NCBI GenBank assembly: GCA_964362915.1
Contig: CAYIGH010000005.1
Span: 1 to 47,455, forward strand
From: Candidatus Woesearchaeota archaeon
GTDB taxonomy: Archaea > Nanobdellota > Nanobdellia > Pacearchaeales > GW2011-AR1
DNA length: 47,455 bases
Direction: 5' to 3'
In this document: positions 21,191 through 31,420 of the stretch, piece after piece
Position numbering within the stretch: position 1 is the stretch's first letter
Layout: each line of letters opens with the position of its first letter
Program-made: the position numbers and the translations under genes
The notes under the pieces: generated by a model
Seen by the model: the letters and a program-made list of their open reading frames with translations, nothing else
Databases searched by the model: none
What the model was told of the DNA's origin: nothing

Positions 21191-21514
21191 TCATTTTCTC
21201 GAACTATGAAAAGAATGAATTCTTTGTGTTCCGTCTTCTTTTACCTCTAAAATTCCATCTTCATATGTGCTTTTTGTTAACAGGTCTTTATCTTCTAATT
21301 CTCTCATTATATCTTCTCCCGTATTATACTCCCCTTCTAGTCTGATTATAGGGATAACATAAATTCCTGGTTCAATTCTCGATAACCTTTCTTCTGCCTC
21401 TTTTTTCCATTTATTATAAAATAGCATGGAGGAATGTAAGATAACACCTAGACTAATTGCTCCTAATGTCCAAGTTGTATAGTTCCTAAATTTCATGGAC
21501 TCACTGATTCTCAC
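21191..21514 (-). CDS. Hypothetical membrane-anchored protein
   Basis: 107-aa ORF with one TM; alternative ATG at 21496 just after the EF-2 stop. Confidence 0.5.
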   Translation of the reverse strand: MRISESMKFRNYTTWTLGAISLGVILHSSMLFYNKWKKEAEERLSRIEPGIYVIPIIRLEGEYNTGEDIMRELEDKDLLTKSTYEDGILEVKEDGTQRIHSFHSSRK

Positions 21515-24266
21515 TCAACCCCTTTCTTTCTCGGATTTTTCTGATAACATTGTCCTGCAATTCTCTTGGAAGTTTCTGGAAATGCTGGTCTGCAAGGGAA
21601 GAAACTCCCCTGCCTTCTGTGGCAGATCTTAAATCATTGCTCCAGCCAATCATTTCAGCCACAGGTATTTTGGCCATGATTATAACTTCTCCGCCTTCCT
21701 GCTCAACATTAATTAAAACGCCTCTCTTGCTTCCTATTAAAGAAGTTACTGCCCCCATAAATTCAACAGGCACTTCAATTCTGTGTGTTTGTATTGGCTC
21801 AACTAATCCTGCCCCTCCGCCGCCCATGCACTCAAACATCCCTTTTCTTACAGCAGGATAAATTTGAGCAGGGCCCCTGTGCATGTGGTCTACATGCAAT
21901 TTAGCATCATGCAAAATCAGTTTGGTTTTCATTAAGGGCTCCCTTGCCAATGGGCCTGCGTCAATAACTAATCTCCAGCCATCCATTATAGAATCAATTA
22001 CTTCACCAAGCAAAACTATTCCTCTTGTCCTATCCTGGAATACATTTCCCTTATAGATTTCTTTATACTGTCTTGCTTCCTCATTGCTTAATCCTAATTC
22101 AGATAATTTTTTCCACGTTTGCTCTGCTCTTTTCTTCAATCTTTCCTCTGGAATCTCGCCTTTCTCTATAGAACTATAAATCTCATCTTCTAAAGGCTCC
22201 ATGCTGAAGAAAAATATATTGTGGCTATTTGGTGTTCTCATCTCTATTTTATGGCTTGGCTTTGCAACAGTCTCTCTGTAAACAACAATCGGATGGCCTG
22301 TTTTCACTTCCAATCCTTTTTCATTTTTAATTCTGCCCTCTATAATTTCTAAGTGCAGTTCACCCATCCCCGAAATTAGATTTTCTCCTGTTTCTTCGTT
22401 GATTTCTACTTTTATACTTGGATCCTCTTTTGCAACTTTTCTCAATACCTCGATAAGCTTTGGCAAATCTGAGGATCTAATAACTTCAATAGATTTTGTA
22501 ATAACTGGCTGGAAAATATGTCTTATTTCTTCAAATGGCATTTCTTGTTTTAATGTAATAGTCTCTCCAACATCTACATTCAATCCTGAAATTGCTAATA
22601 CATTTCCAGCCGGAACTTTTTCAACTTGTTCTGGTTTTATCCCATTATAAACAAAGACTTGCTGTATTCTTCCGGTTTTTTTGGCATTATTTGCATATAC
22701 CTCCATTCCATTGATAATTGTTCCAGAATACAATCTCCCTGCAGCAACTTCTTTTCCTGATCTAGGATCTATTACAATTCTTGTAATCACAAATGCCAGT
22801 TCACCATTTTTATTGCATTTTGAAAGATCTTGTCCAAACTTGCTTTCTGCATCTCCCCTCCATATCTTTGGAATTCTATATTTTTGTGCTTCTAGTGGAT
22901 TTGGCAGATGTTTTACTGCCATATCTAAAACAACATCATGCAAAGGAGCATTTTCCCATACCCACTTCTTTCTATCGGCCTCTTCCATTTCATAAAGTCT
23001 AATAATGTCTTTAAAACTAACTTTTTTCTTTTTCATGAATGGCAGAGATAATGCCCAATTATCTCTAGCAGAGCCAAAAGCAACGCTTCCATCCTGAACA
23101 TTAACTTTCCATTTTTCTTTATATTCTGGCTCTGCAATTTGCATTATCAGGCTATTAAACTGCTCTATAATTCTCATTAATCTCTCTTGCATTTGCTCAG
23201 GAGTTAATTTTAGTTCTTTAATTAATCTATCAACTTTATTCAAGAAAAGAACTGGCTTTACTCTTTCTCTCAATGCTTGTTTCAAAACTGTTTCTGTTTG
23301 CGGCATAATTCCTTCAGAAGCACACACCAAAACAAATGTTCCGTCAATAGCCCTCATTGCTCTAGTAACGTTCCCTCCAAAGTCAACATGTCCAGGTGTA
23401 TCAATCAAATTAATAAGATACTCTTCATCATGATAAGTATGCACCATTGAAACATTTGCTGCATCTACTGTCATTAATCTTTCTTGTTCATCTGCATGCT
23501 GCCAAGTGGCCATGCCCTCCTCTAAATCTCCAGCAGATTTTACAGCCATCATTCCTGCTGCAGCTAAAAGATTGTCTGTGAACGCCGTATTATGTATAAC
23601 AATTCCCTCAGAGATGAAGTTATGATTGTCTGGAATAGTAAAATCATAAACTATTTCTTCAAATGAATTAGCAGTTTCAACAATATCAACAAAAGCTAAA
23701 TCAGAATATGAATTTTTTAATAATTGTACCATCTGTCTATTTACAATTTCTATATATTCATAATCTTCTTTATTTACATTCTTCTCTTTCCAAAAAAAAT
23801 CAGCATTTTTCATACACACAACCATATCTCCAATTCTTAAATCTTTAGCTTCTACATCAACAAATCCATCTCTATAAACAATATACTTATGTTCTGGTGT
23901 TGTTATAATTTCAAAACCGTTTCTTAATTTTACTTTTATAGTATTTCCACCTTTTAATCTCCAAACATATTGAATATTTTTCTTCTCTATTTTTCCTTCG
24001 GATTTATTAAGTGAAAATATCTCTATGTTTTCTCTAGGAGCATAAACAGTATGGTCTTCATTCTCTTCATAAATATCTCCATTTTTAGCAACTTCCTCAA
24101 AAATATCTTTGGCAGTTTTAATACCTCCATCTGTTAAAATTAATCTGGAGTTCCCACTAATACACTTTCCATGGTGTATATGTGCAGACGTAGCTACATT
24201 TCTGATGTTCTTCTGATTTGAAATCAGTTTTTTAATTTTCTGCAAGTTTGTTTCTTTCTCCACCAT
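21501..24266 (-). CDS. fusA: Translation elongation factor aEF-2, intein-containing
   Basis: AHIHHGK/T P-loop, DTPGHVDF, NKVD, GMGELHLEI, HRGPAQ diphthamide loop; start set at MVEKET. Confidence 0.97.
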   Translation of the reverse strand: MVEKETNLQKIKKLISNQKNIRNVATSAHIHHGKCISGNSRLILTDGGIKTAKDIFEEVAKNGDIYEENEDHTVYAPRENIEIFSLNKSEGKIEKKNIQYVWRLKGGNTIKVKLRNGFEIITTPEHKYIVYRDGFVDVEAKDLRIGDMVVCMKNADFFWKEKNVNKEDYEYIEIVNRQMVQLLKNSYSDLAFVDIVETANSFEEIVYDFTIPDNHNFISEGIVIHNTAFTDNLLAAAGMMAVKSAGDLEEGMATWQHADEQERLMTVDAANVSMVHTYHDEEYLINLIDTPGHVDFGGNVTRAMRAIDGTFVLVCASEGIMPQTETVLKQALRERVKPVLFLNKVDRLIKELKLTPEQMQERLMRIIEQFNSLIMQIAEPEYKEKWKVNVQDGSVAFGSARDNWALSLPFMKKKKVSFKDIIRLYEMEEADRKKWVWENAPLHDVVLDMAVKHLPNPLEAQKYRIPKIWRGDAESKFGQDLSKCNKNGELAFVITRIVIDPRSGKEVAAGRLYSGTIINGMEVYANNAKKTGRIQQVFVYNGIKPEQVEKVPAGNVLAISGLNVDVGETITLKQEMPFEEIRHIFQPVITKSIEVIRSSDLPKLIEVLRKVAKEDPSIKVEINEETGENLISGMGELHLEIIEGRIKNEKGLEVKTGHPIVVYRETVAKPSHKIEMRTPNSHNIFFFSMEPLEDEIYSSIEKGEIPEERLKKRAEQTWKKLSELGLSNEEARQYKEIYKGNVFQDRTRGIVLLGEVIDSIMDGWRLVIDAGPLAREPLMKTKLILHDAKLHVDHMHRGPAQIYPAVRKGMFECMGGGGAGLVEPIQTHRIEVPVEFMGAVTSLIGSKRGVLINVEQEGGEVIIMAKIPVAEMIGWSNDLRSATEGRGVSSLADQHFQKLPRELQDNVIRKIRERKGLSENQ
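23589..24164 (-). mobile_element. Mini-intein (192 aa, no homing endonuclease) in the EF-2 P-loop
   Basis: GK|CISGNS...TPEH...VYDFTIPDNHNF...HN|TAF: blocks A, B, F and G present. Confidence 0.95.
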
Positions 24267-24387
24267 ATTGATATTGGAAATTTTATTTAGTTGTAATTTG
24301 TGATAAGAAAGAGGGTTTTTAAAACTTGGCTTTAAATACTTAGAATGCAATAAGCAAGTTTATTAATAATTCAATTCTCTAAAAAAG

Positions 24388-25533: not shown

Positions 25534-26778
25534 ATGACATCCAAAAAATTTTGGGTTTCGCTTGCCGCGATATTCGCATTGGTAGTTTTATCAGTTGTGA
25601 ATGTCAGCGCTAGTTTCGGAAACATTGTTGGTATAGAAGTGGATGAAGTTGATGTCTTCAGTGCACAGCCTGTAGCTATTGAAGCAGGACAGACTGTTGC
25701 TGTAAGACTCTTTTTTCGCGCTGACCAAACTGTTGAGGATGTCAGAGTGAGAGCCTGGATTGCTGGCGACAAAGAAATCGCATCAGTTACAAAGGAATTT
25801 GCTGTCCTTGATGGCAGAACTTACAGCTGGCTTCTTTTGATAAAGATGCCTGCAAGTTTAGATGAAGAAGAACTAGATGAAGATCTAGATCTTCATGTGA
25901 CTGTTGAGAGCAGAGATCTTGGTGTCACTGATTCTTTCGGAGTTGACCTTACTGTACAAAGAGAATCCAATGCACTTGAGATTCTTGATGTAGATTTGGA
26001 CAATGTAGTCAACGCAGGAGATGTTTTATCTCTTGACGTTGTTGTAAAGAACAGAGGCAGACAGACTTCTGAAGATACATTCGTCGTTGCCAGAATACCT
26101 GTATTGAAGCTTGAAGACAAAGCTTACTTTGGAGACCTCTATAACATGGCTGACCCTGTTGTAAATGGCAGACAGCTAGACAATAGAGAAGACTCTTATG
26201 AAAGAAGATTGTCTTTAAGAATTCCTTCAAATACACCTGCTGGTGTTTACGTTGTAGAAATTGAAGCATCAAATGAAGACGCTATAACTACAATGACTAA
26301 AAAGATTGTTGTAACAGGCGCAGAAGGAAAGACACAAGTTGTCTCACCTGTGCACAGCAGATCCTTAGATGTTGGAGAAACAGCTGAATACAGCTTGGTT
26401 CTAGTTAACTCTGGAACTCAAGTTGGATTGTTTGAACTGGTTATTGAGGCACCAAGCGACTTAGATGTTGAAGTGTCTGAGCCGGTTGTTGCTGTACCCG
26501 CAGGCAGTAGCAAGACTGTAACATTAAAAACCATGTCTGATAAGGCTGGAAATTACAATTTTGCAGTAAATGTCCACTCTGGCGGAGAGCTAGTAACAAG
26601 AGAAGAGTTTACAGCAAAGGTTGAAGGCAGATCAACAGCAGATATAACAAGAACAAATCCAACTGTATTATTGACAGTTGTTCTTGCAGTTATCTTCGTT
26701 GTGCTTTTGATAGTGCTGATTGTTCTCTTGACAAGGAAACCTGAAAAGTCTGAAGAATTCGGAGAAAGTTATTACTAA
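25534..26778 (+). CDS. Membrane-anchored Ig-like/CARDB-type surface (S-layer-associated) protein
   Basis: Signal peptide, acidic Val-rich beta-sandwich repeats (VKNRG, LVNSG), C-terminal TM and EEFGESYY tail; long T-tract downstream. Confidence 0.75.
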   Translation: MTSKKFWVSLAAIFALVVLSVVNVSASFGNIVGIEVDEVDVFSAQPVAIEAGQTVAVRLFFRADQTVEDVRVRAWIAGDKEIASVTKEFAVLDGRTYSWLLLIKMPASLDEEELDEDLDLHVTVESRDLGVTDSFGVDLTVQRESNALEILDVDLDNVVNAGDVLSLDVVVKNRGRQTSEDTFVVARIPVLKLEDKAYFGDLYNMADPVVNGRQLDNREDSYERRLSLRIPSNTPAGVYVVEIEASNEDAITTMTKKIVVTGAEGKTQVVSPVHSRSLDVGETAEYSLVLVNSGTQVGLFELVIEAPSDLDVEVSEPVVAVPAGSSKTVTLKTMSDKAGNYNFAVNVHSGGELVTREEFTAKVEGRSTADITRTNPTVLLTVVLAVIFVVLLIVLIVLLTRKPEKSEEFGESYY

Positions 26779-26941: not shown

Positions 26942-28357
26942 ATGAAAAAAGTTTTGCTTTTAACGCTGATGTTATTTGTTAGCTCTGCAGTTGTTTCAGC
27001 AGCAGTCGGTGACTTGGTCGGAACTGTGAACTTCAGTGTTCCATGTTCTTCAGGTATTGGTGTTGGCATCGCATATGATGGAATGAATCTTTGGTATTCT
27101 TGCTATAACTCTGCAACTGATCTCTATAGGGCAGATCCTCAAACTGGTTTAGTAACTGCAAGTTATACTATTACAGGAAGTTTAGGAGCTCTAGCTTATG
27201 ACGCCTCAAGGAATGCGCTTTGGGCTGGCTGGGGAGATTTTTCTGGAAACGTGAGATTATTGCAGCTCAATGCGTCAAAGGATATTATCAATACAACAAC
27301 AGTTTTCACTGCAGGTGATGCAGTCATTGTTGGCCTTGATGATGGGCTTGCCTATGACGCTCAAGATGACACACTCTACTTTAGTGATGATGTCTCGACA
27401 ACGATTCATCATTATACAGTGAATGGCACTCATCTTGTAGACTTTTCTTGGGCAGGAAGTGGTTGTTATAATAGCGGATTAGCTCTTGGAGGAGATTTGC
27501 TGTATCAAGGATCTAATGGATGTAATCAGGTCTGGGTCGTGAATAAATCAAATACAGGAGTTATAGTATTTAATTTCTCAACAGCAGTTGGCGCAGATCC
27601 CGGATTCAGAGATGAAGATCTTGAATGTGATACAAATACTTTCTCTGGGCAGGGCAAGCATGTGATGTGGTCTGTAGAAGCGTATGATCCAAATTCAGGA
27701 TTAACTATTTTACCACGAAGAGCCATGGCTTTCGAGATACCACTTAATAGCTGTGGTATAGGAGGAGCACAAGCAGCCTGCGGTGATCAAGTTGTAGACG
27801 CAGGAGAACAATGTGATGACGGGAACAATGTCAACGGAGATGGTTGTTCTGCTACATGCATGATTGAAGTGGCTCCAGTTTGTGGGAACAGTATTTTAGA
27901 AGCTGGAGAACAATGTGATGATGGAAATAATGATAATGGTGATGGTTGTTCCTCAACATGCCAAATAGAAGTACAATGTCCTGATAATGATGGAGATGGC
28001 GTAAATGACTGTGATGATTTATGTTTGAATAGTCAGCCTGATAACATTGCTCTAAATCCAAATCAATATGCTCAAAACATTGATTTTGGTGCATTTGAGT
28101 CAGGTCCTGGGAATGATCAAAGCATTGTCTATGACATGCAAACCACAGGTGGATGCACATGCAAACAGATTGCAGCACAATTAGGAGTAGGAGCTGGTCA
28201 TATCAAGAAAGGATGCAGTCCATCAGTAATGGAAGCTTGGACAGGAATCAATGCAGAACCAGATAGACAAGCAGGAATTGGAAGAAATATCCTTCTTATT
28301 GGAGGACTCTTAATTGCAGGAGCAGGGTCAGCAGTTATTAGAAGATTCCTGAAATAA
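26942..28357 (+). CDS. Secreted beta-propeller protein with two Myxococcus-type Cys-rich (DUF4215-like) repeats, TSP3-like motif and C-terminal anchor
   Basis: G.AYD blade motifs; CG......GEQCDDGN..NGDGCS.TC x2 at 27779 and 27881 (102-bp period); DNDGDGV.D..D.C; GGGGGTG RBS upstream. Confidence 0.8.
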   Translation: MKKVLLLTLMLFVSSAVVSAAVGDLVGTVNFSVPCSSGIGVGIAYDGMNLWYSCYNSATDLYRADPQTGLVTASYTITGSLGALAYDASRNALWAGWGDFSGNVRLLQLNASKDIINTTTVFTAGDAVIVGLDDGLAYDAQDDTLYFSDDVSTTIHHYTVNGTHLVDFSWAGSGCYNSGLALGGDLLYQGSNGCNQVWVVNKSNTGVIVFNFSTAVGADPGFRDEDLECDTNTFSGQGKHVMWSVEAYDPNSGLTILPRRAMAFEIPLNSCGIGGAQAACGDQVVDAGEQCDDGNNVNGDGCSATCMIEVAPVCGNSILEAGEQCDDGNNDNGDGCSSTCQIEVQCPDNDGDGVNDCDDLCLNSQPDNIALNPNQYAQNIDFGAFESGPGNDQSIVYDMQTTGGCTCKQIAAQLGVGAGHIKKGCSPSVMEAWTGINAEPDRQAGIGRNILLIGGLLIAGAGSAVIRRFLK

Positions 28358-28495: not shown

Positions 28496-31420
28496 ATGGT
28501 TTATGTAAAAAAGATGGTTATACAGGGATTTAAGAGCTTTGCAAAGAGGACAGAAATTCCTTTTGACAAAGGGATTAATATTTTTATAGGCCCAAATGGG
28601 AGCGGAAAAACTAATGTTGCAGACAGTATATTATTCGCTCTTGGAAGGCTGTCAATAAAATCTATGAGGGCTGCAAAAGCAAGGAATTTAATTTTTATGG
28701 GATCAAAATATGTTAAGCCTGCTAAAGAGGCATTTGTTGAGCTCATTTTTGATAATTCTGATCGCGCTTTTTCTTTAAATAGTAATGAAGTGCATCTTAA
28801 AAGAATCGTTAGAGTTAATGGCCAGAGCGCATATAAAATAAATGGAGAAACGAAAACTAGAAATGAGGTTATTGAGATGCTTGCACAGGCAGGAATTGAT
28901 CCTTATGGATTTAATTTGATATTACAGGGTCAGATTCAGAGCCTTGTAAAAATGCACCCTGAAGACAGAAGAAAAATTATAGAGGAAGTTGCAGGCATAT
29001 CTATTTATGAGTCTAGGAAAGAGAAATCCTTGCACGAGTTGGAAAAAACAGATGAAAGATTGAAAGAGATTAGTACAATTTTGCGCGAAAGAACAGCTTA
29101 TCTAAGGAACCTTGAAAAAGAAAAAGAGCAGGCCGAGAAATATAAGAATGCACAATTGATAGTAAAAAGAGCAAGGTCATCTATTATACATAAAAAGATA
29201 GAAGAAAAGAAGAGAGAATTAAATGCTATTTTAAAATCAATCGAAGAGAAAGAAAATATCAAGGCTAAAATAAGAAGGGTTATCGAAAAATATCAGAAAG
29301 AGATTGAAACATTGTCTTTAAGAATAAATGATATTAGCAAGCACATACAACAGGCCACTGGAATGGAGCAAGAAGAATTACATAATGAAATTGCTGATTT
29401 AAGGGCAGAGATAGAAGGGTTAAAAGTAAGGAAGGAAAGTTATGAAAATAGAAGAGATGAAATTGAAAGAAGAATAGAACAGATGTCTAAGTCAATTCCA
29501 GATTTAGAAGAAGAGATTATTGGATTGAGAAAGCAATCCCCAATTATTGCGAAGAAGTCTGTTGAACTTAAGAAAAAGAAGGATGATTTGAGCCAAATAG
29601 AAAATGAGCGAAAGAAACTACTAACATTAAAAATAGAATTACAGGCCTTTAAAGATAGGATAAAAGACAAGGAGAAAACTTTATCACGAATACAGGCTGA
29701 ATCTGAGTCCATAGTAAAAAGACTTGAAGAATATTCTGGAGAATTGAATTACGAGAATGGGAGCTTATGCTTAAAGGCCATAACAGCTCTAAAAAAAGAT
29801 ATAGAAATTAAAGAGCATCAAATAAAAGAATTAAATAAAAGAGAGATGGAGAATGAGAAAATACTGTCTGTTGCAGATGCTTCTATTGTAAATGCAGAAA
29901 AAATTAAGTCTGATGTTGAAAGACTAGAATTCTGCCCTTTATGCCAGAGTAAAATAACCGGAGAGCATAAACAGCATGTGCATAAAGATTCAGAGGAGAA
30001 AATATTTAAAGCTCAGGAAGGTAAAGAAAAAGCATTGGGAGAATTAGAATCTATAAAGAAAGAAAAAGAAATAATTTTTAAATATATCTCTAAGTCTGAA
30101 ACTAAATTATCTAAAGACGAGGCGGAGTTGATAAACCATAAGAATATTGCTGAAAAAAAAGAACAATTGAAAAAAATTGTTGAGGAAGAAAAAGTTCTAA
30201 AATTTGAAATTTCTGATTTTGAAGATAAAAGAAAGAAGCTAGAAGCGAAGTCTAATGACTTGGATAGAATAGAAGATCAATATCAAAATAAAATTCTAGA
30301 GATAGAAGAAATTTCCTCCAGAACAGAAGAAGATGTGGATACGACTCTTCTATATAAAGAAAGAGAACTTGAGAATATTCAAAATATTATAAAGAGAAGT
30401 AAAAAAGATTTAGGAGATATAGACAATGATATTGAAGAAATTAGTGAAAAGCTGGAGATGAAGATTAGCTCTCTTGAAGAAAAAGAAGAAAAAGAAAGGA
30501 ACTTGCAGGTTCAATTTAAGAAAATGTTTGAAGAAAGAGATTCAGTACAAAAAACTATGCAGGAAAAGAACTTTTCTTTATCAGAAACCCAGCAAGAACT
30601 AAGGCAGATAGAAGACCAAGTTAATTATTTAAAAATCGGAAAGGCCAAACTTGATGCGGAAAGAGAGGCCTTGGAGATTGAATTTTCTGAATACATTGGT
30701 ATTGAACTGCTGCAGGGCAGCATTCCTTCGATAGAAGATAGACTTAGAAAAGCACAAGAAATATTGCAAAATATAGGGTCAATTAATATGAGAGCATTAG
30801 AAGTTTATAAAGATGTTAAAAAAGAATATGATGCTGTACAGGAGCGAGTCAATATTTTACAGAAAGAAAAAGAAGAGATATTAAAGATAATTGAGGAAAT
30901 AGACAAGAAAAAAACCAGGACGTTTATGAAAACATTTAAGGCATTAAATGGGCTCTTCTCAGATAATTTTTCAAAACTTTCCGCCAAGGGCATAGCTTAT
31001 ATGGATCTTGAAAATAGAGAAGATATTTTTGCAGGAGGAGTTACTATTGTTGTAAAATTAGCCAAAGGCAAGTACTTTGATGTAACATCTCTATCTGGTG
31101 GCGAGCAGACGCTGGTTGCTTTGTCTTTATTGTTTGCAATCCAGGAATACAAACCTTATCATTTTTATGTTTTTGATGAAATTGATGCAGCTTTAGATAA
31201 AAGAAATTCTGAAAGATTGGCTGCTTTGTTGAGTCAATATATGAAGTCTGGACAATATATTGTTATTACCCATAATGATGCGATTATAATTAATTCAGAT
31301 GTTTTATATGGGGTAAGCATGCATGAAGGCATAAGTAAAATTTTGAGTCTGAAACTAAGTGAGAGCATGCCAAAGAGCGATAATGTTTCAGAAAGTCAGA
31401 AAGCATCTAAAGAGGCCTGA
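28496..31420 (+). CDS. smc: Smc (condensin-type ATPase head) with central CXXC zinc hook and no recognisable hinge
   Basis: GFKSF, GPNGSGKTN, QG Q-loop, IEEVAGI, GSINMRA, LSGGEQ, FDEIDAALD, ITH; CPLC at residues 480-483. Confidence 0.9.
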   Translation: MVYVKKMVIQGFKSFAKRTEIPFDKGINIFIGPNGSGKTNVADSILFALGRLSIKSMRAAKARNLIFMGSKYVKPAKEAFVELIFDNSDRAFSLNSNEVHLKRIVRVNGQSAYKINGETKTRNEVIEMLAQAGIDPYGFNLILQGQIQSLVKMHPEDRRKIIEEVAGISIYESRKEKSLHELEKTDERLKEISTILRERTAYLRNLEKEKEQAEKYKNAQLIVKRARSSIIHKKIEEKKRELNAILKSIEEKENIKAKIRRVIEKYQKEIETLSLRINDISKHIQQATGMEQEELHNEIADLRAEIEGLKVRKESYENRRDEIERRIEQMSKSIPDLEEEIIGLRKQSPIIAKKSVELKKKKDDLSQIENERKKLLTLKIELQAFKDRIKDKEKTLSRIQAESESIVKRLEEYSGELNYENGSLCLKAITALKKDIEIKEHQIKELNKREMENEKILSVADASIVNAEKIKSDVERLEFCPLCQSKITGEHKQHVHKDSEEKIFKAQEGKEKALGELESIKKEKEIIFKYISKSETKLSKDEAELINHKNIAEKKEQLKKIVEEEKVLKFEISDFEDKRKKLEAKSNDLDRIEDQYQNKILEIEEISSRTEEDVDTTLLYKERELENIQNIIKRSKKDLGDIDNDIEEISEKLEMKISSLEEKEEKERNLQVQFKKMFEERDSVQKTMQEKNFSLSETQQELRQIEDQVNYLKIGKAKLDAEREALEIEFSEYIGIELLQGSIPSIEDRLRKAQEILQNIGSINMRALEVYKDVKKEYDAVQERVNILQKEKEEILKIIEEIDKKKTRTFMKTFKALNGLFSDNFSKLSAKGIAYMDLENREDIFAGGVTIVVKLAKGKYFDVTSLSGGEQTLVALSLLFAIQEYKPYHFYVFDEIDAALDKRNSERLAALLSQYMKSGQYIVITHNDAIIINSDVLYGVSMHEGISKILSLKLSESMPKSDNVSESQKASKEA

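Follow-up and report, generated by a model that had tools for sequence, protein, structure and literature searches.

The 47,455-nucleotide (nt) stretch of a Candidatus Woesearchaeota genome analyzed here (contig CAYIGH010000005.1; hereafter the window) carries a gene, smc, for a protein of 974 amino acid residues (aa) that combines the ATPase head of Smc with a zinc-hook motif at the apex of its coiled-coil arm. We regard this protein, with high probability, as a natural Smc-head/zinc-hook protein in which the hinge was replaced by a Rad50-type hook, and which acts as the condensin-type Smc of the organism. On this interpretation, the protein would bind zinc, dimerize through the hook and function with ScpA and ScpB, and the hook would have been captured from a rad50 gene. 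A first-pass annotation of the window, made from the sequence alone, had proposed a natural chimera of this kind, i.e., a hinge-less condensin. The results below support that proposal: the hinge was not found, the heads did not branch with Rad50, and the hook motif was conserved in the orthologues.

The hinge domain SMC_hinge (PF06470) did not match the protein in a Pfam search even at E <= 10, and neither the GX6GX3GG motif nor a looser hinge signature was found in it; the same pattern was positive in three hinge-bearing relatives. In the full-length model by AlphaFold2 (AF2; mean predicted local distance difference test score [pLDDT] of 79 and predicted template modelling score of 0.42), a split head is followed by a single long antiparallel coiled coil with several breaks, which turns at residues 477-488, between the helices of residues 422-476 and 489-586. 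The segment EFCPLCQSKITGEHK starts at residue 478, and its CPLC (residues 480-483) stands, as annotated, at the tip of the predicted antiparallel coiled coil. The entire protein contains three cysteines, namely C425, C480 and C483. C425 (nt 29768-29770), which lies approximately 55 residues N-terminal of the hook, is retained in the closer relatives (ENGSLC, ETETSC, ATESEC etc.) and lost in the distant ones.

We collected the 120 best database matches of the protein, which share 60-100% identity with it, are labelled, where named, as SMC of 'Nanoarchaeota' or 'Candidatus Pacearchaeota' and comprise 946-1082 aa, or approximately 1480-1570 aa when an intein is present. C-P-x-C was found at the same position in all of the 121 sequences including the query (119 CPLC, one CPVC and one CPMC), which argues that the motif is more than a chance occurrence, and the precomputed Pfam lists of the 120 matches contained no SMC_hinge. 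Furthermore, C480, P481 and C483 were invariant in an alignment of 54 homologues (alignment A1) down to 38% identity, and H491 was kept in at least 90% of them. Among the representatives clustered at 50% identity, full-length proteins bearing the hook (946-1023 aa) extended down to approximately 39% identity, beyond which the representatives were hinge-bearing proteins of approximately 1100-1200 aa with no CXXC. Seven orthologues (P0013, P0015, P0035, P0057, P0095, P0106 and P0126) were of approximately 1480-1570 aa and carried an intein (PF14528, PF14890). This intein of approximately 525 residues lies just C-terminal of Walker A, such that the matches of these orthologues to the window protein begin at residue 36-38, and the same Walker A intein occurs in about a dozen genomes of the order (e.g., G399, G391, G404 and G422).

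We consider it hardly conceivable that the lack of the hinge stems from an error in assembly or binning, or that the gene is a decaying pseudogene. The assembly is fragmented into 71 contigs, which would suit such an artefact. Nevertheless, the reading frame is open over 974 codons at 28496-31420 on the forward strand, the catalytic residues are invariant, and colinear homologues were found in 148 of the 151 genomes sampled from the order, some of which are single-contig assemblies. In addition, contigs assembled from three sequencing runs, which belong to two groundwater studies, span the codons of the hook with 0-1 differences and with neither insertions nor deletions; the assembly itself may derive from one of the three runs. 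Parts of the gene had no contig cover in the runs X3, X5 and X9, and there was no RNA run among those listed for the gene. The summed depth of the contigs in two metagenome runs rose approximately tenfold (53-56 versus approximately 5) over positions 31142-31239 of the window, the region of Walker B, most likely because contigs of other organisms encoding ABC-type ATPases aligned to this conserved stretch.

The heads are those of Smc. SMC_N of Pfam matched residues 3-947 with an E-value of 5e-50. Among the NCBIfam models, SMC_prok_A scored 514 bits (7.7e-154) and SMC_prok_B 492 bits, each in two stretches with the middle of the protein skipped, while the model of archaea-specific SMC-related proteins (ASRP) gained 115.4 bits (2.8e-33) from the C-terminal head only and the Rad50 model 109 bits (1.3e-31). 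The closest relatives of known structure in a phmmer search were the Smc heads of Pyrococcus and Bacillus (3.9e-103 to 2.4e-60), and Rad50 heads followed only at 5e-15. All of the motifs quoted in the first-pass annotation in favor of Smc-family rather than Rad50 heads were found in the protein (GFKSF at residue 11, SIKSMRA at 53, RRKIIEEVAGI at 158, GSINMRA at 761, LSGGEQT at 866 and FDEIDAALD at 893), and the model scores bear out that assignment. Across the 54 homologues, K38, Q144, S867, G868, G869, D894, E895, D897 and H926 were invariant. In the N-terminal half of the head, AF2 placed strands and helices over residues 4-166 and Q144 constitutes the Q-loop; D897 and H926 in the C-terminal half constitute the D-loop and the H-loop, respectively.

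The rest of the genome was surveyed for other SMC proteins and for the partners of Smc. The assembly amounts to 1.09 Mb in 71 contigs, with a completeness of 94.7%. SMC_hinge was not found anywhere in it by a six-frame search, in which 10 of 14 control genomes were positive. A genome-wide search with SMC_N detected the smc gene, a Rad50 gene on contig 34 and one weak match of 300 aa. This Rad50 is of 697 aa, possesses its own CPTC hook (ICPTCLQDVPEAHKH) and is encoded directly downstream of a gene for an Mre11-like metallophosphatase; judging from the translations and not from a family search, the further neighbors of the locus appear to encode a proteasome beta subunit and an aCPSF1-type nuclease, and they mark the organism as an archaeon. 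ScpB was detected on contig 10 (122 bits), and ScpA, a protein of 322 aa on contig 1, scored 33.9 bits with its Pfam model (cut-off 24.6) and had ScpA as its best relative of known structure (1e-11). Thus, the gene in the window is the only Smc gene of the genome, its kleisin and kite partners have been kept, and a Rad50 for DNA repair exists separately. It had been annotated that no scpA, scpB or mre11 is adjacent to smc. This is correct for the window, albeit all three are encoded elsewhere in the genome, and the search for ScpA and a separate Rad50-Mre11 pair, which had been suggested together with the annotation, recovered both.

We analyzed a head alignment of 83 sequences, consisting of 55 hinge-bearing, 19 hook-bearing and 8 sequences with neither feature, plus the genome's own Rad50 as the outgroup. 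The first 195 and the last 215 residues were aligned separately and subjected to a quick IQ-TREE analysis, in which the support was assessed by the Shimodaira-Hasegawa approximate likelihood-ratio test (SH-aLRT) with no bootstraps. The 19 hook-bearing sequences and four short sequences with neither feature grouped into a single clade with an SH-aLRT of 100, and this clade was nested among hinge-bearing Smc sequences, while the Rad50 of the genome was placed on a branch with a length of approximately 10. The heads therefore did not branch with Rad50, contrary to what was named in the first-pass annotation as a sign against the chimera. ASRP, MukB and RecN references were kept outside the tree, and those families were compared by the scores of hidden Markov models.

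With the heads, the gene content and the tree at hand, we judge it very improbable that the protein is a paralogue of Rad50/SbcC or an ASRP (such as ClsN and Sph) and not a condensin Smc. The zinc hook, the missing hinge, a length shorter than that of canonical Smc and the weak matches to the ASRP and Rad50 models are what such an identity would predict, and most ASRPs are described with a zinc hook in the excerpted text of PMC9389158. Nevertheless, the SMC_prok_A score of 514 bits stands against 115 bits for ASRP and 109 bits for Rad50, the curated cut-offs of which are 300 (NF045487) and 700 (NF003034 and related), respectively, and the head tree places the protein inside hinge-bearing Smc. 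Both of its arms can be aligned with the arms of hinge-bearing Smc. Furthermore, the genome has no other Smc and yet retains ScpA and ScpB, and it is the other SMC-like gene that Mre11 adjoins.

The hook-bearing Smc is not peculiar to the gene in the window but is spread over most of the order. In the phylum, SMC_hinge was detected in 278 of 301 sampled genomes, all belonging to the same class (two of the positive genomes are unpublished). SMC_hinge was found in none of the 13 sampled genomes of the family to which the window belongs (none of 14 if its own genome is included), and in none of the one genome representing the second family of the order in the phylum sample (f2). A homologue of the protein was identified in 148 of the 151 genomes sampled from the order; most of these homologues are colinear frames, 952-1024 aa long or, with an intein, approximately 1490-1523 aa long. 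ScpB was present in 144 of the 151 genomes. The profile of the hook module matched in 150 genomes of the order, twice in 128 and once in 22, leaving one genome with no match. Among the matches listed, the genomes with two matches had one in an Smc-sized frame and one in a Rad50-sized frame (683-722 aa), and four genomes with a single match (G249, G351, G394 and G346) had it in an Smc-sized frame. If the listed pairs represent all of the 128 genomes, about 132 of the 151 genomes (128 + 4) would carry a hook-bearing Smc. Outside the order, five genomes with no hinge (G016, G059, G186, G248 and G253) were searched with the window protein, and no hook-bearing Smc was found: G016 had a C-terminal fragment at the end of a contig, G059 a weak match of 793 aa, and the remaining three no match. 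Taking the head tree and the genome counts together, the hinge appears to have been lost once from a hinge-bearing ancestor. The sequence data thus indicate that the hinge-less state is derived and that hinge-bearing Smc gave rise to it a single time, at or near the base of the order.

Hook-less relatives were also observed in this lineage (P0139, P0141, P0143 and P0149; in the genomes G332, a single contig, G319, G328, G330, G334, G340, G342, G305 and G354). In P0139, 111 residues devoid of cysteine stand in place of the distal arm and the hook, which correspond to residues 342-626 of its hook-bearing sister P0138. In the genomes with a hook-less Smc, Rad50 was the only match to the hook profile.

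The hook module resembles the hooks of Rad50 proteins beyond the cysteines. A profile of 15 diverse hook modules over 130 residues (profile A2) was searched against all of the sequences in the PDB. The hooks of Pyrococcus furiosus Rad50 came first (6zff, 9.7e-11; 1l8d, 2.1e-10) and human RAD50 followed (5gox, 1.3e-4), with alignments in register over approximately 105-117 positions; the first unrelated chain appeared at 0.0019. The Rad50 hooks of the lineage itself are even closer: the same profile matched Rad50-sized frames (683-722 aa) in genomes of the order at 57-66 bits over model positions ~3-129. The core consensus reads 'KIDiCPLCQSKITeEH' in Smc and 'KIDICPTCLQDVPEaH' in Rad50, and what is shared thus extends beyond the cysteines. 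When the 94-residue modules of the Smc hook and of the lineage's Rad50 hook were compared by hhalign, the score was 68.6 with a probability of 98%, as opposed to a maximum of 19.1 in 100 column shuffles and 13-16 with other windows of the Rad50 arm; the score was still 36.6 after the 21-residue core had been masked. The structure of the module predicted alone by AF2 (pLDDT 95.3) consists of two long helices and a loop of 12 residues. In a Foldseek search of the PDB with this model, chain B of 1l8d ranked first (target-normalized TM-score 0.83, root-mean-square deviation 2.3 A, E 0.011), and 7zqy, 5gox and 6zff were within the first dozen. The term 'chimera' is supported at the sequence level, as the best PDB matches of the hook profile are Rad50 hooks and the Rad50 hooks of the lineage itself were found as well.

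Several observations weigh against our interpretation. On the side of the hook, Rad50_zn_hook (PF04423) of Pfam did not match the full protein even at E <= 10; in the isolated segment it was the top Pfam match (E 0.007), but the score of this single sequence is below the cut-off of the model (16.5 versus 24.3 bits). The AT-rich amino acid composition common to the lineage may inflate the 57-66 bits of its Rad50 hooks. Comparisons of the profiles of the flanks alone scored 10-22 for true pairs and cross-controls alike, and do not tell an origin from the Rad50 arm from one in the Smc arm. No match in the Foldseek search reached E <= 0.001, and helical hairpins, such as the receptor-binding domains of colicins, ranked just behind the Rad50 hooks; we draw on the ranking of this search alone. 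On the side of Smc, the protein in full length is below the cut-offs of both Smc equivalog models (514 versus 729.4 bits for SMC_prok_A, TIGR02169; 491.8 versus 567.35 bits for TIGR02168), and the match of ScpA lies mostly in the N-terminal domain. The head tree is a quick one with SH-aLRT support only, and 67 of the 150 candidate sequences (fragments, sequences with inteins and those failing the motif filter) were left out of it. The same clade includes relatives of approximately 780-824 aa that lack both the hinge and CXXC, and their existence argues that the hook is not indispensable in the lineage. Finally, zinc binding and dimerization are predictions from models and sequence likeness.

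If the hook is a zinc-mediated point of dimerization, it could in principle have arisen de novo by convergence after the hinge was lost, with no contribution of rad50. We regard such a history as unlikely. In its favor, the invariant part of the module is C-P-x-C alone, the flanks taken by themselves compare no better than the cross-controls, and the confident profile alignment to hinge-bearing Smc runs close to the loop from both sides. P0149, which has neither hook nor hinge and is sister to the rest of the clade, would fit an intermediate with a bare tip. Convergence nevertheless leaves unaccounted for the in-register match of the module profile to Rad50 hooks at 1e-10 over those 105-117 positions, the retrieval of the lineage's own Rad50 hooks over almost the entire model, a consensus that Smc ('KIDiCPLC...I..EH') and Rad50 ('KIDICPTC...V.E.H') have in common outside the cysteines as well, and a core-masked hhalign score well above the best of the 100 shuffles. 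We thus prefer the descent of the hook module from a Rad50 hook.

The dimer of the hook was modelled with two copies of residues 405-560 and zinc, as had been suggested along with the annotation. Three runs scored 0.61, 0.60 and 0.62, as opposed to a highest score of 0.00 among three controls. At least 93% of the contacts were common to the runs, the pLDDT of the partner was at least 86, the arms lay side by side, and C480 and C483 of both copies were in contact, such that the four cysteines were brought together in the model. In the calibration of this approach, 20 of 30 proteins solved as pairs reached the mark, as did one of 23 solved as single chains. As dimers of Rad50 hooks have already been solved, the prediction may reflect the memory of the method, and it shows likeness and not binding.

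In an alternative that we deem quite improbable, the cysteines bind a metal within one chain (e.g., together with H491 and H494) or merely shape the turn, and the protein dimerizes through contacts between the arms and between the heads. The spacing C-x2-C-x7-H-x2-H in the window protein and its close relatives, the conservation of H491 in at least 90% of the homologues and the existence of hook-less relatives would be in line with this idea. Nevertheless, distant hook-bearing members lack the second histidine (e.g., EHLKEI, EHRKKI and EERKVI), and several carry another residue in place of the first. With C-P-x-C as the only invariant part, a Cys2His2 site within one chain is unlikely. The module is homologous to the solved hooks of Rad50, in which the zinc is reportedly held by four cysteines from two chains (1L8D study); in the dimer model as well, C480 and C483 of both copies touch one another. 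A zinc-mediated link between two chains is therefore retained in our interpretation.

The geometry of the arm is nearly fixed in the hook-bearing proteins. The distance from EEVAG to the first cysteine of the hook was 317 residues in 108 of the 121 sequences, and that from the first cysteine to SGGE was 387 residues in 109, in a sample that consists mostly of close relatives. In profile-profile alignments to hinge-bearing relatives, the N-terminal arm was aligned up to residue ~462-466 and the C-terminal arm from residue ~488-495, with the hinge alone missing. A hinge of approximately 150 residues thus corresponds to approximately 28 residues in the hook-bearing protein, and the nearest hinge-bearing relatives exceed it by approximately 30 residues in each strand of the arm. 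In the AF2 model, the helix of the ascending strand is broken at residues 209-216, 288-291, 331-334, 345-351 and 414-422, and that of the descending strand at 586-589, 607-614, 733-743 and 760-767. Some relatives, namely P0202, P0209, P0227, P0230 and P0231 (810-838 aa) and P0159, P0163 and P0215 (943-963 aa), keep the hinge on much shortened arms. As such short-armed hinge-bearing relatives exist, these Smc proteins differ greatly in the length of the arm, which is near-fixed only within the hook clade.

Altogether, we propose that the protein serves as the ATPase of a condensin-type Smc-ScpAB complex in a small groundwater archaeon of the DPANN group. An apical loop of approximately 28 residues with C-P-x-C, set in a module homologous to the hook of Rad50, stands in place of the hinge of approximately 150 residues. 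Two chains would be joined permanently at the tips of the arms by a single Zn2+ with C480 and C483 of both chains as its four ligands, and the two arms would lie side by side as a rod. The heads, being of the Smc type, would engage with one another, hydrolyze ATP and bind the kleisin ScpA and ScpB as in ordinary Smc-ScpAB. For the history of the system, we lean slightly towards an Smc-ScpAB that is hinge-less throughout the order: the lineage's own rad50 would have supplied the hook that replaced the hinge in a single event, and some sister families would later have lost both this hook and the distal arm (approximately 810 aa). The hook sequence common to the two proteins leaves room for the possibility that Smc and Rad50 could cross-dimerize through their hooks.

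The role of the SMC hinge has long been debated, and the hinge has been viewed as a gate for DNA, a site of DNA binding or a mere point of dimerization. In the literature covered here, the evidence that the hinge is replaceable comes from laboratory chimeras (excerpted texts of PMC5344682 and PMC6969161). In the lineage studied here, evolution made the same swap and kept it down to 38% identity, alongside the genes for ScpA and ScpB and with arm lengths that are near-fixed. The retention of the swap with ScpA/ScpB and fixed arms argues that the tip of the arm must provide a constitutive link of the dimer, and that the geometry of the arm is the constrained feature. If our interpretation is true, a natural series leads from hinge to hook to bare tip, and if all three forms are functional, neither the opening of the hinge nor contacts between hinge and DNA would be essential to the action of Smc. 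A natural, old and order-wide confirmation of the replaceability of the hinge would be of interest to the SMC field, and natural sequences are hereby supplied for studying hinge-free Smc complexes in vitro. There is also a blind spot in surveys that collect Smc sequences by the hinge; hinge alignments served as the queries in PMC5344682, according to its excerpted text.

The coordinates of the gene and its parts are listed in Table 1. The window is AT-rich, with a G+C content of 30-40%. The gene is surrounded by housekeeping genes, including those for aEF-2 with an intein, an AP endonuclease, RNase HII, a CDP-alcohol phosphatidyltransferase and a Toprim protein, and its direct neighbors encode a DUF4215 protein and RNase HII; the locus is neither a defence island nor a mobile element. 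Two reading frames precede smc on the same strand: the one at 25534-26778 (414 aa) had no Pfam match, and the one at 26942-28357 (471 aa) had DUF4215 as the only match. In the elongation factor 2 gene (21501-24350, reverse strand), Intein_splicing covers residues 71-254 and splits the GTP-binding domain.

Table 1. Positions of the smc gene (P0001) and its parts in the window
Feature	Nucleotides	Strand	Basis or remark
smc gene (P0001)	28496-31420	+	List of open reading frames and translation; 974 aa; sole Smc-type gene found in the genome
ATPase head, N-terminal half (residues ~1-170)	28496-29005	+	phmmer to Pyrococcus/Bacillus Smc heads, 1e-103 to 1e-60
Walker A, GPNGSGKT (residues 32-39)	28589-28612	+	Within the N-terminal half of the head
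Arm, ascending coiled-coil strand (residues ~169-476)	29000-29923	+	AF2 full-length model
Hook module (residues 420-549)	29753-30142	+	Two helices and apical loop; homologous to the Rad50 zinc-hook module
Apical loop (residues 477-488)	29924-29959	+	Carries C480-P-L-C483 (29933-29944), proposed zinc ligands
Arm, descending coiled-coil strand (residues ~489-828)	29960-30979	+	AF2 model
ATPase head, C-terminal half (residues ~829-955)	30980-31360	+	phmmer to the Smc C-terminal chains 3kta_B and 1xew_Y, ~1e-38
Signature motif, LSGGE (residues 866-870)	31091-31105	+	C-terminal half of the head
Walker B, FYVFDE (residues 890-895)	31163-31180	+	C-terminal half of the head

A search of the full-text literature, which excluded supplements and subscription journals, returned no paper on a naturally occurring Smc proper that carries a zinc hook, albeit members of the clade might be present, with no comment, in the sequence tables of PMC8665677 or PMC9389158. 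As far as this search shows, the swap of a hinge for a hook has so far been made only by engineering. Compared with the Smc of canonical Smc-ScpAB (5xei, 4i99 and 3zgx), the window protein is alike in the two halves of the head, the catalytic motifs, the long broken antiparallel arm and the presence of ScpA and ScpB in the genome, but it lacks the hinge, its arm strands are each shorter by the approximately 30 residues noted above, and its scores are under the cut-offs of the full-length models. As in the Rad50 hook (P. furiosus 1L8D and 6ZFF; human 5GOX; PF04423), C-P-x-C lies at the tip of an antiparallel coiled coil, and the two hooks are homologous at the level of profiles. In contrast to Rad50, the hook sits here on Smc heads with no Mre11 gene adjacent, and the separate Mre11-Rad50 of the genome has CPTC.

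ASRPs are likewise archaeal members of the SMC superfamily in which a zinc hook takes the place of a hinge, but they constitute a separate family, as the ASRP model gave 115 bits and the Smc model 514 bits for the window protein. ASRPs are not known to act with ScpAB. Zinc hooks are described for the ASRPs ClsN, Sph1 and Sph2 (excerpted texts of Yoshinaga et al., 2022, PMC9389158, and of PMC9764264), and ClsN of Sulfolobus is a small protein of 68 kDa (PMC9764264, same excerpt). Natural relatives of Smc with no hinge are also found among the bacteria: a hinge-less SMC with no CXXC is described for marine Actinobacteria-like organisms in the excerpted text of Sussfeld et al. (2025; PMC12153180), and in this respect it is closer to the hook-less forms of approximately 800 aa than to the window protein.

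The nearest counterpart is an engineered one. In Smc(Zh) of Bacillus subtilis, the hinge was replaced by the hook of P. furiosus Rad50, and the cells grew normally on rich medium, while the right length of the arm was still required (excerpted text of Burmann et al., 2017, PMC5344682). In the reverse swap, fission-yeast Rad50 carrying the hinge of MukB or of B. subtilis SMC still repaired DNA damage, according to excerpts of PMC6969161. Smc(Zh) has the same architecture as the window protein and depends on the length of its arm, and in the clade of the window protein the lengths of the arms are almost fixed. In contrast to Smc(Zh), which is engineered and bacterial, the window protein is natural and archaeal, belongs to a group old enough for its members to have diverged to 38% identity, and represents a form of Smc carried by most of an order.

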